A stretch of DNA of 64,000 nt from an uncultured archaeon (GTDB taxonomy: Archaea; Iainarchaeota; Iainarchaeia; Iainarchaeales; VGJJ01), in NCBI GenBank assembly GCA_964480705.1, contig CAYZPC010000001.1:31297-95296 (forward strand). The letters are read 5' to 3'. Position numbers and translations under genes: made by a program. The notes beneath the pieces are model-generated. The model had not been told where the DNA came from. It ran no database searches and worked only from the letters and a program-made list of their open reading frames with translations. This document shows, one piece after another, positions 1 through 54,244 of this stretch. Position 1 is the first letter of the stretch; each line of letters starts with the position of its first letter.

Positions 1-70
1 AAAGAAACTCTGGCCGAGGGATTGTGAAACAATTCCTCCACACCTGCCCGCCAGATGTCAATGGCGCGAG

Positions 71-3207: not shown

Positions 3208-3252
3208 ATAATTTTGATGCATCGTTCCAACACGGAAAATTGTTAGAAAAAG

Positions 3253-3336
3253 TGCAGGGAGCAGGATTCGAACCTGCGAAGGCACTAAGCCAGTGCGGCC
3301 TAAACGCACTCCGGTTGACCGCTACGGTATCCCTGC
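3253..3336 (-). tRNA. tRNA-Leu (anticodon TAG), class II, no encoded CCA
   Basis: RC: GCAGGGA acceptor, anticodon stem GTGCG-CGCAC with loop TTTAGGC, long variable arm, T-arm GCAGG-TTCGAAT-CCTGC. Confidence 0.8.
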
Positions 3337-3337
3337 A

Positions 3338-3358
3338 AACTTTTTGTCAAAAAGTTTG
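3338..3358. repeat. Palindrome AAACTTTTTGTCAAAAAGTTT (member of recurring A5/T5 palindrome family; terminator-like)
   Basis: Near-perfect inverted repeat read directly; sits between the 3' end of the gene at 3416..4399 and the tRNA-Leu 5' end. Confidence 0.6.
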
Positions 3359-3415
3359 ATCAAAAAGCTCTTTGTATCTAAGGATGGGAAACAGATATAA
3401 ACGCCCGCACGCGTT

Positions 3416-4399
3416 TTACCGCGTCAAATCCGAATAATGTATTTTCGTATCTCTTTCAGGAGGGTTGTCTTCGATATCCTCGCGCAAATCATCCTCTACA
3501 TCCGAGGACCATTTTTTGGGTTGCGCTTCCGCCACTCCGTCGTTTGATTTTCCGCCCGGAACGCCTTTGAATAGCGTGTCGAGTGTTCCTTCAAAGAAGG
3601 GTGTTCCTTTGGTGGGAGCATTAAATCCTTCTTTCTTGCGGCCGTTAAACACGAAGAATGCTAATGCAATTGCCGCGACGATTCCCACCCCAATAATGGG
3701 AGCATTGCTGCTCGTTGCGAGTCCTGTCGCGGGAGAGGATGGTCGGAAAAAGTCTGAGATGAATGGAATTTGCAACCCCGTTTCAACCGGTTCTTCTTTG
3801 GGTGCAATGAGTGGCGCAAGCTGAGCGTTGAGTGTAATAATTTCTGCTTTTGCATCCTCCAATGCTTTCGTGAGCGTGGCATTATTCGTGTAAATATTTT
3901 CTTTCGCAGTAATGGTTTCAGTTTCAAGCGCGCCCACGCGCGTATCCACCGTGTCTACTTTCGTGCTTAGTTCCATTTGCGATGCCGCGTCAACGGCATC
4001 AAACACATTCACGGTAAACAAACTTGTTTCCGCTGCGCTTCCTTGCGTGGATACAAAAATAGTGTGAGGTCCAGGGAAAAATCCCGTGTGGGTGATAACC
4101 GCCGTCAATCCTTCATTTGTTTTGGTGTCCGCATCAAATGTGGCACAATGAATGATGAAGGGAATCCAGTCTGGTTGCACCGCGCACGTTCCGGAGGGAT
4201 AAATGGTTGCCACGAGAATGTTGTCAAAGTGCACCGCGCTCTGAGAAAATGTATCGGTGGCGGGCATGACGACTCTAAATGTGAAGGGTGCATACGATAC
4301 TACTTTTTCAGGGGCTTGAATTTCGGCTGCAAATGCCATGTTGGCGGTAAGTAAAATTAGTAGTAAAATTCCCCACGTTTTCATATTCATTCCTCGCAC
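3416..4399 (-). CDS. Secreted surface protein with signal peptide, coiled-coil segment and C-terminal TM anchor
   Basis: N-terminus MKTWGILLLILLTANMAFAAEIQAP; C-terminal helix IIGVGIVAAIALAFFVF followed by a basic tail. Confidence 0.6.
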   Translation of the reverse strand: MRGMNMKTWGILLLILLTANMAFAAEIQAPEKVVSYAPFTFRVVMPATDTFSQSAVHFDNILVATIYPSGTCAVQPDWIPFIIHCATFDADTKTNEGLTAVITHTGFFPGPHTIFVSTQGSAAETSLFTVNVFDAVDAASQMELSTKVDTVDTRVGALETETITAKENIYTNNATLTKALEDAKAEIITLNAQLAPLIAPKEEPVETGLQIPFISDFFRPSSPATGLATSSNAPIIGVGIVAAIALAFFVFNGRKKEGFNAPTKGTPFFEGTLDTLFKGVPGGKSNDGVAEAQPKKWSSDVEDDLREDIEDNPPERDTKIHYSDLTR

Positions 4400-4535: not shown

Positions 4536-4570
4536 TTGTCGCGCCATTATCCATCTGGCGGATCGGTATA

Positions 4571-4606
4571 GGGTTATTGTTTCACAATAACCCGTTTATT
4601 TTTCGC
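4571..4606 (+). terminator. Hairpin GGGTTATTG-TTTCA-CAATAACCC followed by GTTTATTTTTCG, intrinsic-terminator-like, downstream of tRNA-Val
   Basis: 9-bp perfect stem followed by a T-rich tract. Confidence 0.5.
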
Positions 4607-4804
4607 CAGCCTTTTTACTAAAAAGGCTGATTCGACATCCGGCGGGTCGTCCCCAAGGTGTCGAATCGTCGACACCTTTCTGCTTTTGATTAAACTTTTT
4701 TTCCAGTGGGTGTTGCTTGCAACTCCCATTTCTCGCCACCGTTCATCGAAAGGGGCGTTTACTTCAAGCCCTTGTTTTTTATACCTGTAAACATTCACGT
4801 ATGC

Positions 4805-5768: not shown

Positions 5769-7093
5769 TTTCCTCGCCCCCCAGATGACATGGCCAAAAA
5801 CAATCCCCACACTTGCGTGGAGAGGATGAATATCCAGTACACGGACAAAAATAAAATGACTCCTACCATGGAGAGATTTTTTGTTTTGACTCCCGCGGCG
5901 CGTGTTCCCATCGCTGCCATCAGGATGGTTAATCCTACTATTAACATGTACAAGAACAAGTCACTGTTCAAGTAAAGGGGAGGCAATACAATCGTCTCAA
6001 ATGCAATCGTAGAATAGGACGTGAACGAGCGATACACATCCGCGAGGCTTTCCGAAAACATTCTTGCGGCGAGTAGTAGAAAGAAAATCGCCCCCGTATC
6101 TAATATCACGCGCAGGGGGAAAAATACGCGGAAGAAAAACTTTTGCGGTGAAAACATTTCGTTGCGATACTTGAAAATAGTCTGCCACCCTCCGCGTGCC
6201 CATCGTTGGCGTTGGCGAAAAAGTTTGCGCAGCGTATCAGGCACATCGGTAAACACTTGCGCGTCCGCTTCTAACACGACGTGATATCCTGCTTTGTGCA
6301 GGGCGAAGGTGATTTCCATATCCTCCGTGATGTTGTGCACGTCATACCCGCCTATTTTTTCAAAGGCGCTGCGGCGATACACGGAAAAGGGTCCCGGCGT
6401 CACGTATAGCGAGTCGAGTGTATTCAACACGGAGTTTTTCAATCCAAATTCTAAAAAGTATTCCACTTCTTGAATGCGTGCGAGTAAGTTGTTTCGGTTG
6501 TGCACGCGCACAATCGTGGTGACTGCTCCTACGTTTTCATTGCGATAAAAATGGGGGATTAGTTTTTCGAGCGTGTCCACATTGGGAAAACTATCTCCAT
6601 CAATCGCGGCGATGAATTCTCCTTTCGTTGAGCGTGCGGCCTTGTTGAGCGAGGCGGCTTTTCCAATATTTTTTTCATTATGAATGACTTTAATTTTTCC
6701 CTTGAATTCATTCAAAATTTCTCGTGTTTGATCCGTGCTTCCATCGTTTATCACAGTAATATCCCACTTTCCGTTGTAATGCATCGCCGTCACGTGTTGT
6801 AAACACGTGCGCAGGCTCTCTCCTCTATTCCATGCGGGGATGATTACACTCACGCTCGGCCACTTGGTGAGAAGTGGCACGTGAACGGTTTGTTTTTCCA
6901 AAAAGGCTAGGAGGAAGAAGCATCCCATGTACAAAAAAAACACCGAGAAGGAGACCATGATGATAAATAAAGGTAAATTGAAAACCGCCCATCCGGCCGC
7001 GCCGATGAAGAGTAAATATGCAAGTGCCCCTGCTACTCGTGCCCGGTCGGATGGCATGTTCTTGTTGAGCGTGGGTCCTTCAGAGCTGTCCAT
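5762..7093 (-). CDS. Family 2 glycosyltransferase, integral membrane, processive type (QxxRW)
   Basis: VSVIIPAWN, DGSTD, AIDGDS and QRQRWARG motifs; N- and C-terminal TM helices. Confidence 0.85.
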   Translation of the reverse strand: MDSSEGPTLNKNMPSDRARVAGALAYLLFIGAAGWAVFNLPLFIIMVSFSVFFLYMGCFFLLAFLEKQTVHVPLLTKWPSVSVIIPAWNRGESLRTCLQHVTAMHYNGKWDITVINDGSTDQTREILNEFKGKIKVIHNEKNIGKAASLNKAARSTKGEFIAAIDGDSFPNVDTLEKLIPHFYRNENVGAVTTIVRVHNRNNLLARIQEVEYFLEFGLKNSVLNTLDSLYVTPGPFSVYRRSAFEKIGGYDVHNITEDMEITFALHKAGYHVVLEADAQVFTDVPDTLRKLFRQRQRWARGGWQTIFKYRNEMFSPQKFFFRVFFPLRVILDTGAIFFLLLAARMFSESLADVYRSFTSYSTIAFETIVLPPLYLNSDLFLYMLIVGLTILMAAMGTRAAGVKTKNLSMVGVILFLSVYWIFILSTQVWGLFLAMSSGGRGKW

Positions 7094-9185: not shown

Positions 9186-9848
9186 ATGGCCGATGAAATA
9201 ACGCTCGATAAGGAAGTTTTCAAAGCGCTTGCGGGAGACACACGTGTTTCCGTGTTGAAATCATTAATGCAGCGCCGAAAAACACAAAGTGAATTGGCGA
9301 AAGAATTGAACCTCGCCGCGCCCACGATTAAAGATCATTTGGATATTTTGCAGAAAGCCCAACTCGTGAGAGAAGTGGATGATGGTCACAAATGGAAATA
9401 CATTGAATTAACCGTCAAAGGAAAATCACTCTTACAGCCAACTGACAAGCGTATCATGGTCTTGTTAGGAACCAGTTTGTTTGGTGTTGCAGCGGCCGGT
9501 TTTTTGGCGTATTCAAAATTCTCCTCTCTTGCATTCCAGAATTTTTCCACTTTTGCCGCCGATAACACGGCGGTGATGAAAGCCGGTTCTCTTCCCGCGG
9601 ATGCGATGATTGCGAGTGGGAGCGAATTAACCCAAGCGGCTCCCCTTGTTTCAGGAGAAGGTGCCAATGCTTCTATTGAAGTTGGTCGCACCGCGTTGGA
9701 AGCGGCCGCGCCGAGTGTTTCTCCTCTTGCCACGGATGTGGCGGCGCAAACATTCGCCTGGATTCCCACTCCTGAATTGGCAGTATTAGTAATTTGTTTA
9801 GTCGTTTTTGGTTTAGCGTGTGGAATGTGGATCAAACAGACATACTAA
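9186..9848 (+). CDS. ArsR-family HTH transcriptional regulator with C-terminal membrane anchor
   Basis: N-terminal ALAGDTRVSVLKSL..QSELAKELNLAAPTIKDHLDIL wHTH; C-terminal hydrophobic helix. Confidence 0.75.
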   Translation: MADEITLDKEVFKALAGDTRVSVLKSLMQRRKTQSELAKELNLAAPTIKDHLDILQKAQLVREVDDGHKWKYIELTVKGKSLLQPTDKRIMVLLGTSLFGVAAAGFLAYSKFSSLAFQNFSTFAADNTAVMKAGSLPADAMIASGSELTQAAPLVSGEGANASIEVGRTALEAAAPSVSPLATDVAAQTFAWIPTPELAVLVICLVVFGLACGMWIKQTY

Positions 9849-9849
9849 T

Positions 9850-9872
9850 TGAAACTTTTTGAAAAAGTTTCA
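9850..9872. repeat. Palindrome TGAAACTTTTTGAAAAAGTTTCA (A5/T5 palindrome family)
   Basis: 23-bp inverted repeat 2 nt after the ArsR stop codon. Confidence 0.6.
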
Positions 9873-9954
9873 TCAAAAGCCTACTTGGGGATTCTACGAA
9901 TCCCCAATAGTAGTCCGTCCGCGCGGCCGGAGGTTACCGGCCTTAGAAAGAGTA

Positions 9955-10080
9955 AGGCGGGGACGGGTTGGGTTGTCCCCGGCCTTTGGGTTGGTTGGGT
10001 TGTTAGGCAAATTGGGTTGGTTAAGAAGCATCAACGCAGCAACGGCGGGCCATCTTGGTTGGGTTGGGAGTTAAGGAGGC
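9955..10080 (+). repeat. G-rich GGGTTGG/GGTTGG repeat tract (potential G-quadruplex) in a structured intergenic region
   Basis: Nine or more GGGTTGG/GGTTGG units; no ORF on either strand; the 27-mer TCTTGGTTGGGTTGGGAGTTAAGGAGG is duplicated at 10366. Confidence 0.6.
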
Positions 10081-10138
10081 AGCCCACCGCGCTGAGTTGA
10101 TACAATCTTTCTTGGGAAGCATCATTGTGTTTTTTGAT

Positions 10139-10161
10139 AAAACTTTTTTTCAAAAAGTTTT
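10139..10161. repeat. Palindrome AAAACTTTTTTTCAAAAAGTTTT (A5/T5 family) at the stop of the wHTH gene
   Basis: Inverted repeat read directly. Confidence 0.55.
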
Positions 10162-10635
10162 TCGGACGAACACCACCTTTTTTCCGGATTGGATTTTTCC
10201 AAGGTAGCCGGTTTTGACGAGTGCATTGAGTCGTTGCGAGGCCGCGTTGGGATTTTTGTATCCTGCGTGCGTGCGCACCTCTTCGGCGTTGGCTTTTCCA
10301 TTTTTTTCAATGTATGCGAGTATTTTTTGGTCCGCTTCGGGTAAGAGTGAAATCGAATGCAGGTTCTCTTGGGTTGGGTTGGGAGTCAGGGAGGTTCCTG
10401 CATTCGATTTTAGTGCGAGGGATAATTCATCGTATTTTTCTTCCATCTTGGCGAGCAAATCATTCGTTTGCTTGCGTTCTTGAGCAAGTTTGAATAGGAG
10501 CGCGGCGATAATCATGGGGTTATCTTTCCCCGCTTGCATGACATCATTCAAGTCTGCCGTGAGGGTGGAGAATTCGGGGCTAATCTGCTCCATCAAGGCT
10601 TGCGGAGTCAGTTTTCGATAATCACGATTGGTCAT
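10150..10635 (-). CDS. Winged-helix (MarR/PadR-like) DNA-binding protein with N-terminal coiled-coil domain
   Basis: C-terminus ILAYIEKNGKANAEEVRTHAGYKNPNAASQRLNALVKTGYLGKI wHTH pattern. Confidence 0.6.
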   Translation of the reverse strand: MTNRDYRKLTPQALMEQISPEFSTLTADLNDVMQAGKDNPMIIAALLFKLAQERKQTNDLLAKMEEKYDELSLALKSNAGTSLTPNPTQENLHSISLLPEADQKILAYIEKNGKANAEEVRTHAGYKNPNAASQRLNALVKTGYLGKIQSGKKVVFVRKTF

Positions 10636-18335: not shown

Positions 18336-18397
18336 AAAGAGTGGTGCCATTTATTGGCACCACGACACCGATCCGCCAGATGGATAATGGCGAGGCA

Positions 18398-18469
18398 TGG
18401 ACCCGGGAGGGGTTGAACCTCCGACCTTCGCTGTATAAGAACGCTGCTCTACCACTGAGCTACGGGTCC
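18398..18469 (-). tRNA. tRNA, probable tRNA-Ile (anticodon TAT) with G27.A43 mismatch
   Basis: RC: GGACCCG-TA-GCTC-AGTGGTA-GAGC-A-GCGTT-CTTATAC-AGCGA-AGGTC-GGAGG-TTCAACC-CCTCC-CGGGTCC-A. Confidence 0.6.
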
Positions 18470-36100: not shown

Positions 36101-36877
36101 ATGCCCGAACTCTTAGACTTGTCTCTCCCCACCTCCAGCGGGTTGTCTGCCGAAAAATCGAAGCATGCCGTGCGGCGTGTTCCCACGGGCATACCTGGTT
36201 TTGATGATTTGATTCAGGGTGGTTTTGAAGAGAAAACAAATACTCTTGTAGCGGGCTACGCGGGCACGGGCAAGACTACTTTTTCGATGCAGTTTTTGTA
36301 TAATGGTGCGACGCAGTGGAACGAACCTGGCGTCTATTTGAGTTTTGCTGAGAGTAAAGAAAGTATTTACAATCACTGCATGAATTTTGGGTGGGATTTT
36401 TATGCGTTGGAAAAGCAAGGTCTTGCGCGCCACTTATTTTACAAAGCCCACCAAGTCAACAAGCTCTTAGAAGAGGGCGGCGGCACCGTGCGCGATACAA
36501 TTGCAGAGATTGGTGCCAAGCGCCTGGTGATTGATTCCATTACCGCGTATGGATTGTTGTTTCGTGATGATTACAAGCAGCGCGAAGCATTATTGTTGTT
36601 TTTTGATATGCTGGTGAAGTGGGGTTGCACGAGTTTGATTATTGCCGAACAACTTACTGGTATTCAGGATGCGCGCGCCGGGGAAATTGGCTTTTTGACG
36701 GATGGAATCATCTCTTTTTCGTATGCGCAAGTAGAAGATGACGTGGGCCGGCGTACGCGACAGCACCAGATGGAAGTCTTGAAGATGCGCGGCACGAACC
36801 ATTATAATGGAATTATTGAAATCCAGTTCACTAAGCAGGGATTAGTCTGCCATAAAGCCGTTCGCGACGGAGAATAG
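36101..36877 (+). CDS. KaiC/RadA-like RecA-superfamily ATPase (single-domain KaiC homolog)
   Basis: LVAGYAGTGKTTFSMQFLYNGA Walker A and KaiC-like layout. Confidence 0.75.
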   Translation: MPELLDLSLPTSSGLSAEKSKHAVRRVPTGIPGFDDLIQGGFEEKTNTLVAGYAGTGKTTFSMQFLYNGATQWNEPGVYLSFAESKESIYNHCMNFGWDFYALEKQGLARHLFYKAHQVNKLLEEGGGTVRDTIAEIGAKRLVIDSITAYGLLFRDDYKQREALLLFFDMLVKWGCTSLIIAEQLTGIQDARAGEIGFLTDGIISFSYAQVEDDVGRRTRQHQMEVLKMRGTNHYNGIIEIQFTKQGLVCHKAVRDGE

Positions 36878-36956
36878 GTTTTTTCGGGTTTTAATCAAAT
36901 TTTTCTCAAAAATTTGGCGCACTAGCCTTAAATCATTCTCTCGTGTATGAGAGTAT

Positions 36957-41825: not shown

Positions 41826-42296
41826 ATGGTCAAAAAGCGCTGGGATAAACCCAAATCGGACAATGCCTTCCTGAATGATGTTTCATTCATTGTTTTCGTC
41901 GTGCGTTTTAATTATCGGGTGGTTGAGAAGAAGTGGCCGGAAATAACGAAAGCGTTTCATCATTTTGATATTGCAAAGCTCTCCAAATTAGACGAAACGG
42001 ATGAAAAAACCATGGAAAAATTCTTGCGTGCGCCGGGAATGATAAAAAACAAGTGGAAAATGCAAAGCGTTATCATCAACGCCAAAAAGTGTGCGGAGAT
42101 TCAACGCGAACATGGAAGTGTGTTGAAGTGGATTGCTAAAGCCAAAAAAGAATACAAAAAATCCCCCTTGCTCGCTCCCGAATTGAGAGATATTTTCCGC
42201 GTGTTTAGGGGAATTGGCCCGATGACAAGCACGTGGCTGGAAAGTTTGTTCATGTCTGATAAATCGTATGTCGAGTATGAAATGCCCGACAAGTGA
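41826..42296 (+). CDS. tag: DNA-3-methyladenine glycosylase I (Tag)-like, divergent (lacks canonical N-terminal Zn-binding residues)
   Basis: Colinear with E. coli Tag core (FHHFDIAKLSKLDETD..IKNKWKMQSVIINAKK). Confidence 0.6.
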   Translation: MVKKRWDKPKSDNAFLNDVSFIVFVVRFNYRVVEKKWPEITKAFHHFDIAKLSKLDETDEKTMEKFLRAPGMIKNKWKMQSVIINAKKCAEIQREHGSVLKWIAKAKKEYKKSPLLAPELRDIFRVFRGIGPMTSTWLESLFMSDKSYVEYEMPDK

Positions 42297-42306
42297 GTTG
42301 TTGATC

Positions 42307-42329
42307 AAACTTTTTGGTAAAAAGTTTGG
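42307..42329. repeat. Palindrome CAAACTTTTTGGTAAAAAGTTTG preceded by TTGAT (A5/T5 family)
   Basis: 11 nt after the tag stop; near-identical copy at 53261. Confidence 0.6.
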
Positions 42330-42562
42330 TAGGGTATGAAATGCCGGACTAATATCAACTGCTTTGTGCAGGAATGCTTCGCCATCGTTCAAATCCGCAC
42401 GCGTAACAGTGCAGCGCCACACTTCCTTGTGCGGGGTGCACTATTTTTTTCGAGTGGCACGTGGGACATTTGCTCGCGCGCGTGGGGATCATAAAAGATA
42501 ACGACTTTTAGGTGTTGATAAATGCTTGCCAGCCAAATCGCCAGCAAAAATTATTCAAATGA

Positions 42563-52381: not shown

Positions 52382-52505
52382 TGTTTTTCACTAAAATGGT
52401 TATCTATCGGTCATGCGATAGGCTAGTATACGAAAACGTGGAAATAGGATTAAAATGCCATGCGGGGTGGAGCGCCAATATATACTCTTTTTTCCTTGGC
52501 TCTTA

Positions 52506-53141
52506 ATGGAAATTCTCTCCTATCGCGAATCGCGTATTTTCTCAAAGCAGGCAACCGACCGTATTTTGCAGTCCATTGCTCGAGCGAATGGTCCGATTGT
52601 TCTTCCGGTGGATATTGAATCAATTGCCCATTGCCGCCGCGCCGCACGAGACCCCGCAGTGGTTGCTTCCATTGCAAAAAACCCGTATGGTTTGGACGTA
52701 ATCTCTCTAGCCATTTATTCGATGGCACAAGGAAAGCAAATCGTTCCCATGTTTAATTCAGCGTGGAAAAAACTAGGCAAGCAACATCATCAAGCCTATG
52801 CCGCTTTCGAATCATTGTCAAGTCGTTCGAATGATTTGGCTCGTGCACGCGTGCAGTACGCCCATCGCGAATATTCAATTGAAGCGGCTCGTCTCAAAAA
52901 TTTTTATGAGCGTTTTAGAAAAATTTCTCCTGCGTTGATTGTGGCGGAAGATAATTATGCGATTATTTTTGGCAAACTATTTCGCACCCGCGTACAGAGA
53001 CTCAGCCGACATTCCCGGAGCGGTTTGATGATCATTCGTAAAGTTTGGCCTCACGTAGTGGAAGCATTTAGGGATAATCCCGTTGCTATTCACTCGCGCA
53101 GGCATGGGAGAAAAATAAGGCGTTTGAGAAAAGGAAAGTGA
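52506..53141 (+). CDS. Hypothetical basic protein
   Basis: ORF only. Confidence 0.4.
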   Translation: MEILSYRESRIFSKQATDRILQSIARANGPIVLPVDIESIAHCRRAARDPAVVASIAKNPYGLDVISLAIYSMAQGKQIVPMFNSAWKKLGKQHHQAYAAFESLSSRSNDLARARVQYAHREYSIEAARLKNFYERFRKISPALIVAEDNYAIIFGKLFRTRVQRLSRHSRSGLMIIRKVWPHVVEAFRDNPVAIHSRRHGRKIRRLRKGK

Positions 53142-53260
53142 GTGCAAAAACGGGCGCGGGAAATTTCTTTCCCGCTACCCAATTTGCTGAGGAGATGTTT
53201 CTGGGAAGGGTGATAAAATGCGTCTGCCCCTTTGTGGGGCAATTTTTACTTGTTTTTGAT

Positions 53261-53283
53261 CAAACTTTTTAGGAAAAAGTTTG
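53261..53283. repeat. Palindrome CAAACTTTTTAGGAAAAAGTTTG preceded by TTGAT (A5/T5 family)
   Basis: Near-identical to the copy at 42307. Confidence 0.6.
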
Positions 53284-53581
53284 GTGGTTGGGAGCCTTCG
53301 GAATTATCCTGTTCGAGCCAGGTGAGCCTACTCCCAAACCAAGTTTGAGATTGTCATATTCCGATCTTGTTCAACCACCTCGCGCAATCTTTACTCGTTT
53401 TCTCATATATAATCCTGCCAAAACCATATTTCCGCTCTTTTGTATCATGTATTCATGTTTGCTATTTTTTTTGTTTCATCGATTGTTGTTCCACTCTCTA
53501 AATGAAACAATTCTCTCGAAGGAGCCATTCTTCGAGTATCGCACGAAACGCGTTTAAAGGAGGAAATTCCCTTGTACGTGT

Positions 53582-54244
53582 ATGCGAAATTCCCTTTCCC
53601 ATAAAGAAAAGCAGGTTTTGATTGAGCTCGCCAAAAATGCGCGCCTCTCCGATAGAGAATTGGCTTCGCGGTTGAAAACGTCACAACCCACCGTCACACG
53701 CATTCGTACTCGTCTCATTGAAGATGGCTTCGTGGACCGCTTCATGATTCTTCCCCGCTTGGAAAAATTGGGATTGAAGTTTCACGCATTCACGTTTGTG
53801 CGCACTAACGCGTTTGCTTCGAGCAAAAAAATGGCGGCGTGGGCAGCGGAGCAGCCGTGTGTTGTTTTTTCCTCGGAAGGAGATGGTATTCGCAATCATT
53901 CGGTGGTGTTTGAGTCTTTTCACGAGGACTATGCGGACTATTCTCAAGTCATGCGCTCGTTTAAGGAAAAATTTTCAGGACAATGGGTGGATGTCACTCC
54001 TTTTTTCTCGGATGTGCAGAATATTTCCAAATATTACCACTGGCACCCCCTCATCGAGGATCGTGTACATAAAATCAAAACAGAATTAGGGGAGAAGCGT
54101 GTCTCCAATCGCGAGCGTTTGCGCGCGGCGCTGGAAAAGTTTCCCAATCCCTTGGAACGAATTTCCAATCCCCTGCGTTCGCGTGATGGAAAAGAGTTGA
54201 AAGATGAAAAAAATGATGATGCTGAAAAAGTTCCTGAAAAATAA
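53582..54244 (+). CDS. lrp: Lrp/AsnC-family transcriptional regulator with acidic/basic C-terminal extension
   Basis: N-terminal HTH KQVLIELAKNARLSDRELASRLKTSQPTVTRIRTRLIEDGFV plus RAM-like domain; AAGGAGG RBS. Confidence 0.8.
   Translation: MRNSLSHKEKQVLIELAKNARLSDRELASRLKTSQPTVTRIRTRLIEDGFVDRFMILPRLEKLGLKFHAFTFVRTNAFASSKKMAAWAAEQPCVVFSSEGDGIRNHSVVFESFHEDYADYSQVMRSFKEKFSGQWVDVTPFFSDVQNISKYYHWHPLIEDRVHKIKTELGEKRVSNRERLRAALEKFPNPLERISNPLRSRDGKELKDEKNDDAEKVPEK

Follow-up and report, generated by a model that had tools for sequence, protein, structure and literature searches.

Bacterial repetitive extragenic palindromic (REP) and REPIN elements are mobilised by RAYT transposases of the Y1 HUH type, and we know of no description of REP elements in DPANN archaea. 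To our knowledge, nothing has been learned experimentally about the ending of transcription in DPANN organisms, and in vivo work in Thermococcus is said to point to oligo-U terminators that act with aCPSF1/FttA. Oligo-U terminators of this kind, as described from Term-seq in Methanococcus maripaludis, have runs of at least four to five T residues on the non-template strand just after genes, serve coding and non-coding RNAs, and form an efficient, factor-bound class when two tracts lie within about 18 to 20 nucleotides (nt) on one strand (PMC8716108, PMC7515710). Termination efficiency in M. maripaludis grows with the number of U4 tracts, and aCPSF1 requires two U4 tracts in an RNA of at least 18 nt (PMC8716108). 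Here we describe a recurring palindromic unit of about 30 nt in a 64,000-nt stretch of contig CAYZPC010000001.1 (hereafter the window, meaning the whole stretch) from an uncultured archaeon. All five copies of the unit lie at boundaries between transcription units of this Diapherotrites-like DPANN archaeon, whose Lhr helicase in the window shares 93-57% identity with proteins from metagenome bins of Candidatus Diapherotrites and other DPANN archaea, and whose G+C content in the window is 46%. Judged from sequence and placement, we give somewhat better than even chances that the unit would serve as an oligo-U terminator for both directions and as an insulator, in the form of a REP-like repeated module.

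The palindrome AAACTTTTT-N1-3-AAAAAGTTT has five exact matches in the window, at 3337-3357, 9852-9870, 10140-10160, 42307-42327 and 53262-53282. A sequence-only reading of the same DNA had reported five copies, with coordinates correct to within 2 nt, and each proved to be perfect: the 18 arm bases are invariant across all five, and the five loops (GTC, G, TTC, GGT and AGG) are all different. None of 100 dinucleotide-preserving shuffles of the window yielded the motif, giving an expectation of 0 against the five observed. A looser pattern, CTTTTT-N0-8-AAAAAG, gave six matches where 0.36 were expected; its sole addition was CAGCCTTTTTACTAAAAAGGCTG at 4607-4629, a related palindrome which that reading had also noticed. 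The extended context TTGATCAAACTTTTT-RGN-AAAAAGTTTGGT, said to be shared by two copies, is indeed found at those starting at 42301 and 53256. When up to three mismatches were allowed, no real degenerate copies of the palindrome were found in the window, and the family is therefore all-or-none. The single 9-mer AAACTTTTT occurs 16 times on the two strands of the window, 10 of them within the five palindromes.

Each of the five copies forms the palindromic centre of a longer unit with a defined orientation, AAACTTTTT-loop-AAAAAGTTT-NATC-AAAAA, which measures about 30 nt. Its orientation is set by a third block, NATCAAAA(A), present on one side only; NATC-AAAA(A) is constant on that flank and reads TTTTGATN on the other strand. 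One strand of the unit has a single T5 run, and the opposite strand, TTTTTGATN-AAACTTTTT, has two T5 runs within 19 nt. This two-tract pattern, T4-6-GATN-AAAC-T5-7, is seen in units 1, 2, 3 and 5 and in a T/A variant; in unit 4 the first T tract of that strand is degenerate (TTGTTG).

Unit 1 (3337-3366, plus strand) reads AAACTTTTT-GTC-AAAAAGTTT-GATC-AAAAA. It lies 58 nt past the stop codon of gene 3416-4399 (minus strand) and adjoins the 5' end of the tRNA-Leu(UAG) gene, tRNA-Leu(tag), which was found by ARAGORN at 3252-3336 on the minus strand; the minus strand of the unit, CTTTTTGATCAAACTTTTT, ends exactly at the +1 position of this tRNA. Unit 2 (9852-9878, plus strand; AAACTTTTT-G-AAAAAGTTT-CATC-AAAA) starts 3 nt past the stop of the ArsR-like gene 9186-9848 (plus strand) and adjoins an end of a conserved non-coding RNA (ncRNA) of about 260 nt. 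The other end of this ncRNA is bounded by unit 3 (10130-10160, minus strand), which reads AAACTTTTT-G-AAAAAAAGTTT-TATC-AAAAAA on its own strand, shows T6 and T7 runs on the plus strand, and holds in its loop the stop codon of gene 10150-10635 (minus strand). Unit 4 (42298-42327, minus strand; AAACTTTTT-ACC-AAAAAGTTT-GATC-AACAA) is located between the convergent Tag-like gene 41826-42296 (plus strand) and a conserved 45-amino-acid zinc-ribbon gene, 42355-42492 (minus strand). Unit 5 (53253-53282, minus strand; AAACTTTTT-CCT-AAAAAGTTT-GATC-AAAAA) starts one base past the 3' end of a 99-nt ncRNA, and its plus strand presents three T5 runs following the open reading frame (ORF) 52455-53141.

Three further sequences belong to this group. 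The T/A variant unit (36889-36915, minus strand) reads TTTTAATC-AAATTTTT-CTC-AAAAATTT on the plus strand, 11 nt past the stop of gene 36101-36877 (plus strand). A half unit at 4684-4700 (plus strand), TTTTGATTAAACTTTTT(TT), is without the second arm. The related palindrome at 4607-4629, CAGCC-TTTTT-ACT-AAAAA-GGCTG, has the same layout of T-run and A-run between other outer arms; it lies 72 nt downstream of tRNA-Val, and its RNA hairpin has a folding energy of -12.9 kcal/mol. With five identical cores, the variant, the half unit and the related palindrome in 64 kb, the window contains a short palindrome in many near-identical extragenic copies, as REP-like repeats do. The tetranucleotide GATC is about 5-fold under-represented in the window (47 observed against about 243 expected from base composition), yet it is present in three of the five units.

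The variant and all five copies are intergenic, with a gene 3' end 0-58 nt away on at least one strand, and each has a run of at least four to five T residues on the non-template strand shortly after a gene 3' end. Units 1, 2, 3 and 5 and the variant also have, on one strand, at least two U4+ tracts in about 18 or more nt. Four of the five copies had been placed within about 12 nt of a stop codon; only three stand within 12 nt of credible protein-gene stops (9186-9848, plus strand; 10150-10635, minus strand; 41826-42296, plus strand). Among the sequences following genes, the arrangement T5-N0-5-A5 is strongly enriched, with 1.83 per kb in the 66 nt after genes and 0.09 per kb in coding sense strands (about 20-fold). 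It occurs 12 times between genes, where the reverse order, A5 then T5, was found 0 times. Complementary outer arms surround seven of these 12 sites, and five of the seven are of the AAAC/GTTT family. Likewise, two T5 runs within 12 nt are 15-fold more frequent downstream (1.04 per kb) than in genes (0.07 per kb), and single T5+ runs are 3.6-fold more frequent (9.4 per kb in the 66 nt after genes, 2.6 per kb in genes). A T5+ run follows about half of the genes in the window.

These properties suggest how the unit may function. It would offer oligo-T on the non-template strand to transcription from both directions: a polymerase on one strand would meet (stop codon)-AAAC-UUUUU, and one on the other strand would meet UUUUU-GAUN-AAAC-UUUUU, with two U-tracts within 19 nt. 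The latter would be a signal of the kind that archaeal RNA polymerase uses together with aCPSF1/FttA for efficient termination, and, with its two T5 runs within 19 nt, the strand fits the published two-tract requirement of aCPSF1. Because oligo-T is present on both strands, the unit is most likely a bidirectional terminator and insulator, which would end the adjacent gene and block read-through into its neighbours, especially into stable-RNA genes. Placement, enrichment after genes, conservation in place and the published two-tract rule argue for this function, as does unit 5, which starts directly past a conserved ncRNA with a supported promoter and strand.

Conservation was followed in related metagenome contigs, labelled here with L numbers. 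At the position orthologous to unit 5, AAATTTTTTATTTAAAAAAATAATCAAAAAC is found in L124 and AAATTTTTTTATAAAAAAATTTGATAAAAAAC in L125; the palindrome of T-run and A-run and the GAT-AAAAA block are kept, and the C:G pair is changed symmetrically to T:A. Since these close relatives hold the T/A variant in the same place, a recent insertion at unit 5 was rejected. Unit 2 is represented at the same ncRNA end by AAACTTTTTGCAAAAGTTT in L129 and by the T/A variant AAATTTTTTGCAAAAATTT in L067. L129 has unit 1 unchanged, in a leader with about 94% conservation, in contrast to an unconserved 3' flank of the tRNA; in L123 a degenerate counterpart of unit 4 stands in the same place. The layout of T-run and A-run is kept at the orthologous sites of units 2 and 5, and other copies were gained or lost. 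In a regular-expression census that did not require arm identity, we found the arm variants AACC/GGTT (three times) and AAAT/ATTT (three times), in which complementarity is retained. The complementary outer arms themselves therefore appear to be under selection. If so, the function is probably aided by a hairpin, formed in read-through RNA or in DNA, which might for example protect the 3' end. The RNA hairpins of the units are modest, with -7 to -10 kcal/mol and z-scores of -1.6 to -3.1.

Several observations weigh against a terminator. Sense-strand T5+ runs are not depleted in genes (144 observed, 100 ± 9 in codon shuffles), at variance with what the archaeal oligo-U terminators would lead one to expect. 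Because T5+ is not avoided inside genes, a lone T5 would be no strong stop in this organism; the step from CTTTTT directly to a bidirectional oligo-T terminator, as first proposed, was too simple, and it is position that supports the proposal. Runs of A5+ in genes are also above the codon-shuffled expectation (299 against 191). Furthermore, the two-T5 strand of unit 1 is in sense direction between the conserved TATA box (-65 to -58) and tRNA-Leu(tag), and the whole of this leader is conserved in L129. Units also lie within tRNA introns of Micrarchaeota L022 and archaeon L025, where an efficient terminator would be harmful. The two-T5 strand is inconsistently oriented relative to neighbouring genes at other archaeal loci, and a rule that this strand faces the upstream gene, mostly true in the window, was rejected. 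Finally, a T-run signal alone does not account for the invariant AAAC/GTTT and NATC or for the near-identical unit in bacteria.

The conflict at unit 1 could be resolved if TTTTTGAT, at -30 to -23 of the +1 position, were the TATA box of a leaderless tRNA-Leu(tag). Extended to the whole family, this idea would make the unit a promoter cassette, with TTTTTGAT as TATA box, the A/T-rich second arm as melting region, and a transcription start at the G just past the unit. The location of TTTTTGAT matches that of TTTAAATG in tRNA-Leu(cag), and G-rich starts follow many units. However, transcripts predicted from units 2 to 5 would be antisense to gene 3' ends, real promoters, both here and in relatives of the window, have canonical TTTATATA-like boxes, and TTTTTGAT is a poor TATA box. 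We regard a promoter cassette as highly improbable.

Both conserved ncRNAs next to the units are unannotated, and it was the unit that pointed to them. The 99-nt ncRNA (53283-53381, minus strand) has a conserved TATA box, ATTATATAT, upstream, is conserved in six Diapherotrites-like genomes, and is closed by an 8-bp terminal stem, GGUGGUUG/CAACCACC; U-G pairs in this ncRNA fix the strand. The structured ncRNA of about 250-260 nt (9879-10129; its strand is not settled) is bracketed by units 2 and 3. It is conserved across four genomes (the window, L129, L128 and L067), among which its hairpins show compensatory changes, and it has repeated CCCAACC motifs (GGGTTGG on the plus strand). Rfam searches by gathering threshold and by E-value gave no match for the units, the 99-nt ncRNA or the 250-260-nt ncRNA, and a known RNA family was rejected on this basis. 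The tRNA-Leu(tag) gene at 3252-3336 was missed by the whole-window Rfam scan at gathering threshold; the identical gene of L129 scored 50.8 bits, so this was probably a miss of the speed filter.

Four of the five window copies adjoin stable-RNA genes, and related units are present in the tRNA-Val leader of L129, in the tRNA-Leu trailer of L025 and in the tRNA introns of L022 and L025. These positions, at the ends of ncRNAs and in the leaders, trailers and introns of tRNAs, would be explained if the unit acted at the RNA level, as a U/A hairpin with an A-rich tail in precursor RNAs that a processing or stabilising factor binds or cuts. The compensatory changes that keep the arms complementary, and the folding energies and z-scores given above, speak for such a role. 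Nevertheless, unit 4 and many other archaeal units lie between protein genes only, and the hairpins are weak and would never form if transcription stopped at the first U5. Moreover, the ncRNAs exist without the unit in L121, L123 and L128, and the unit is therefore not needed for their maturation. We consider an RNA-level element unlikely.

The strict palindrome had also been taken as a possible protein-binding site, and a double-stranded DNA site for a dimeric protein, either a regulator or a roadblock to polymerases arriving from both sides, was weighed as an explanation. Invariant 9-bp half sites in a perfect palindrome and three blocks about 12-13 bp apart are consistent with it. Winged-helix regulators are encoded beside several copies (9186-9848, 10150-10635 and 53582-54244), and in the leaders of tRNA-Leu(tag) and of the L129 tRNA-Val the unit stands just downstream of the TATA box, the usual place of an archaeal repressor. 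A palindromic operator would, however, have fixed spacing and a promoter location, whereas the half sites are 1-3 nt apart in the window and 0-3 nt elsewhere, and four of the five copies are at 3' ends or between convergent genes. The symmetric swaps from C:G to T:A also suit base pairing more than base-specific contacts. The protein-site proposal is weakened by these findings, and we now hold it to be very unlikely.

Whether a copy is present differs cleanly between close relatives at some sites. Unit 3 is a clean indel: where the window has 33 nt, L129 has GTTGG and the sequence of L128 is unrelated. L128 is without both units 2 and 3. Conversely, L129 has an extra unit, AACCTTTT-AGG-AAAAGGTT-CATCAAAAC, between the TATA box and tRNA-Val, where the window has one arm only. 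Unit 3, the tRNA-Val unit of L129 and the absence of units 2 and 3 from L128 show the block-wise gain and loss that is typical of REP-like elements; the density is three units per 15 kb in L129 and three per 8 kb in L067. Around unit 4 there is a 16-nt direct repeat, the left copy of which (42275-42290, plus strand; GTATGAAATGCCCGAC) is the 3' end of the Tag-like gene (YEMPD), and the right copy of which (42334-42349, plus strand; GTATGAAATGCCGGAC) has the appearance of a target duplication. This repeat is longer than those in all 400 null pairings of mismatched flanks, and among the window units only unit 4 has such a flanking duplication. A second case is seen at L025 636-780, where a unit comes after tRNA-Leu(gag) and is itself succeeded by 21 nt that repeat the 3' end of the tRNA, again exceeding the mismatched-flank null. 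The locus looks like a scar of integration or target duplication that encloses an insert of only about 38 nt. The clean presence and absence between relatives and the 16-nt duplication lend support to the dispersed repeat that the sequence-only reading had offered as its alternative.

The wider distribution was examined in a scan of species-representative genomes, which returned at least 120 loci, most from unrelated organisms; the genome of the window was not among the loci listed. Units were counted by a constrained regular expression; a covariance model built from 24 aligned units was dropped because the motif is too short and A/T-rich. Among the matches listed, most archaeal ones hold the full unit including NATCAAAAA, namely in Micrarchaeota (L022, L054, L095), Woesearchaeota (L103), Nanoarchaeota (L009), unclassified archaea (L025, L066, L067, L093), Methanosarcina (L007, L017) and ANME-1 (L021, L032), and two matches in Nitrososphaeria are without the flank. 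Among 32 archaeal units at the loci listed, 24 are preceded, on at least one strand, by a long ORF that ends no more than 120 nt upstream, and in 10 the stop codon of the long ORF is at most 11 nt from the start of AAAC. Two tRNA introns at the canonical position carry units: the intron of tRNA-Asn(GUU) in Micrarchaeota L022 (4381-4509, minus strand) has one, and that of tRNA-Arg(UCU) in L025 (archaeon Dive96_bin10, 4152-4339) has three in tandem; both introns are made up largely of the units. Tandem copies were also observed in L003 (uncultured archaeon, 5812-5914), with three copies at a 41-nt period, and in L093 (3732-3791), with two adjacent copies between rpoN-like and rps2-like genes. 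In ANME-1 L021 (3071-3102 and 3562-3634), the unit is found where ORFs converge tightly, and a match to a group II intron domain (RF00029) is about 460 nt away.

Bacterial matches, at least about twenty among those listed, are mostly from Clostridia and Cloacimonadota and have the form AGTTTTTGATC-AAACTTTTT-NN-AAAAAGTTT-G between G+C-rich hairpins. Composite repeats in L052, L060, L064, L018, L059 and others are ordered as GC hairpin, AAGAGTTTTTGATC, AAACTTTTT-NN-AAAAAGTTT and GTGGGGTTCAGGGGCAnCGCCCCTG. In Cloacimonadota L064, two inverted copies 1.5 kb apart surround an ABC-transporter operon rather than a transposase, and an insertion sequence or miniature inverted-repeat transposable element (MITE) with the motif as terminal repeat was rejected. 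In the window the palindrome lies internally, between asymmetric outer flanks, again unlike MITEs and insertion sequences, and the 16-nt flanking repeat is confined to unit 4. Only one match was found among 2.9 million viral contigs (IMG/VR), and a virus-borne element was rejected. A literature search on the sequence words of the unit found nothing relevant.

These observations bear on the explanation that the unit is a selfish or neutral REP-like micro-repeat, copied into tolerated non-coding spots by, for example, a hairpin-recognising HUH/Y1-type enzyme in trans, with any effect as a terminator incidental. The clean differences of about 30 nt between close relatives, the duplications of an upstream gene's 3' end at two units, the tandem copies, the units in tRNA introns, and the occurrence in distant archaea, Clostridia and Cloacimonadota all favour it, and a constant short motif beside a palindrome of variable loop recalls REP elements in general. 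On the other hand, no transposase, integrase, HUH or RAYT-like gene was found among the neighbouring proteins scanned beside the copies, flanking duplications occur at one window copy only, and viral contigs gave that single match. In addition, orthologous copies persist and double changes have left their arms paired, pointing to selection on the unit itself, and invariant arms with variable loops are unlike decaying copies. We therefore give a purely selfish micro-repeat a minority chance, while a selfish micro-repeat and a terminator role are mutually compatible. The bidirectional terminator and insulator that we favour would itself be gained and lost as a block, as a REP-like module.

A broader possibility, which we put forward tentatively and think rather doubtful, is that AAACTTTTT-N-AAAAAGTTT-NATC-AAAAA is one previously undescribed element of DPANN archaea, Methanosarcina, ANME-1 and some anaerobic bacteria. 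It might then be the binding and cutting signal of a conserved 3'-end factor, or else a cross-domain micro-mobile element, which would make 16-21-nt target duplications at gene and tRNA 3' ends, spread into the leaders, trailers and introns of tRNAs, and have been recruited as a bidirectional terminator.

Other features of the window were noted beside these. Three of its four tRNA genes (Val, Ile-UAU and Leu-CAG) are directly followed by a conserved trailer, (T)CGCGCCATT(ATC)CATCTGGCGG(ATCGG), and then by a variable hairpin, at 4536-4595, 18338-18397 (minus strand) and 10-69 (minus strand), and the same is seen at L129 14625-14657; tRNA-Leu(tag) has a T5 run in place of the trailer. The tRNA-Ile with anticodon UAU is located at 18398-18469 (minus strand), and this tRNA is uncommon save in a few archaeal and bacterial lineages. 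The commonest 9-mer of the window is TGGAAAAAA (TTTTTTCCA on the other strand), with 29 copies mostly on the sense strand of genes (for example at 2665, 16532, 48532 and 61790).

A fixed unit at the boundaries of transcription units could serve annotators as a marker for the ends of genes and ncRNAs, and it is a compact candidate for a bidirectional terminator in archaeal genetics. It also provides a test case of whether archaeal terminators can spread as REP-like modules. If its presence in tRNA introns, in distant archaea and in bacteria is due to mobility, it bears on how archaeal tRNA introns and spacers acquire sequence.

Compared with known systems, the unit shares with the archaeal oligo-U terminators the T-runs just after genes, the two tracts on one strand and the service to both coding and non-coding RNAs. 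It differs in being a fixed palindrome of about 30 nt, with invariant AAAC, GTTT and NATC and apparently selected arm pairing, whereas neither a hairpin nor fixed flanks are required of the known archaeal terminators. Bidirectional Rho-independent terminators of bacteria are also A-run/T-run palindromes between convergent genes that serve both strands. Their order, however, is A-tract, G+C stem, loop, stem and T-tract, with the U-run after the hairpin; the order of the unit is inverted, its T-run being the 5' arm of an A/U hairpin with no U-run after it, and no G+C-rich hairpin followed by a U-run was found. The inverted pairs of DNA uptake sequences at Neisseria and Haemophilus terminators resemble it as perfectly conserved 9-10-mer pairs with a variable loop just after genes, but its 9-mer alone is not over-represented, and a DNA uptake sequence was rejected. 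With REP/REPIN elements it shares the size of the palindrome (20-40 nt), the constant motif on one side, the variable loop, the many near-identical extragenic copies favouring gene 3' ends and convergent pairs, the gain and loss in blocks, and the capacity that such elements have to act in termination or mRNA stabilisation. In contrast to the G+C-rich stem of REP elements its stem is A/T-rich, no RAYT-like gene accompanies it among the neighbouring proteins, and it is common to phyla and even domains, whereas REP families are usually species-specific. The known kinds of signal of which it is a variant are archaeal oligo-T terminators and REP-like repeats; most notable in it are the sequence kept constant from one archaeal phylum to another and the copies in tRNA leaders and introns.

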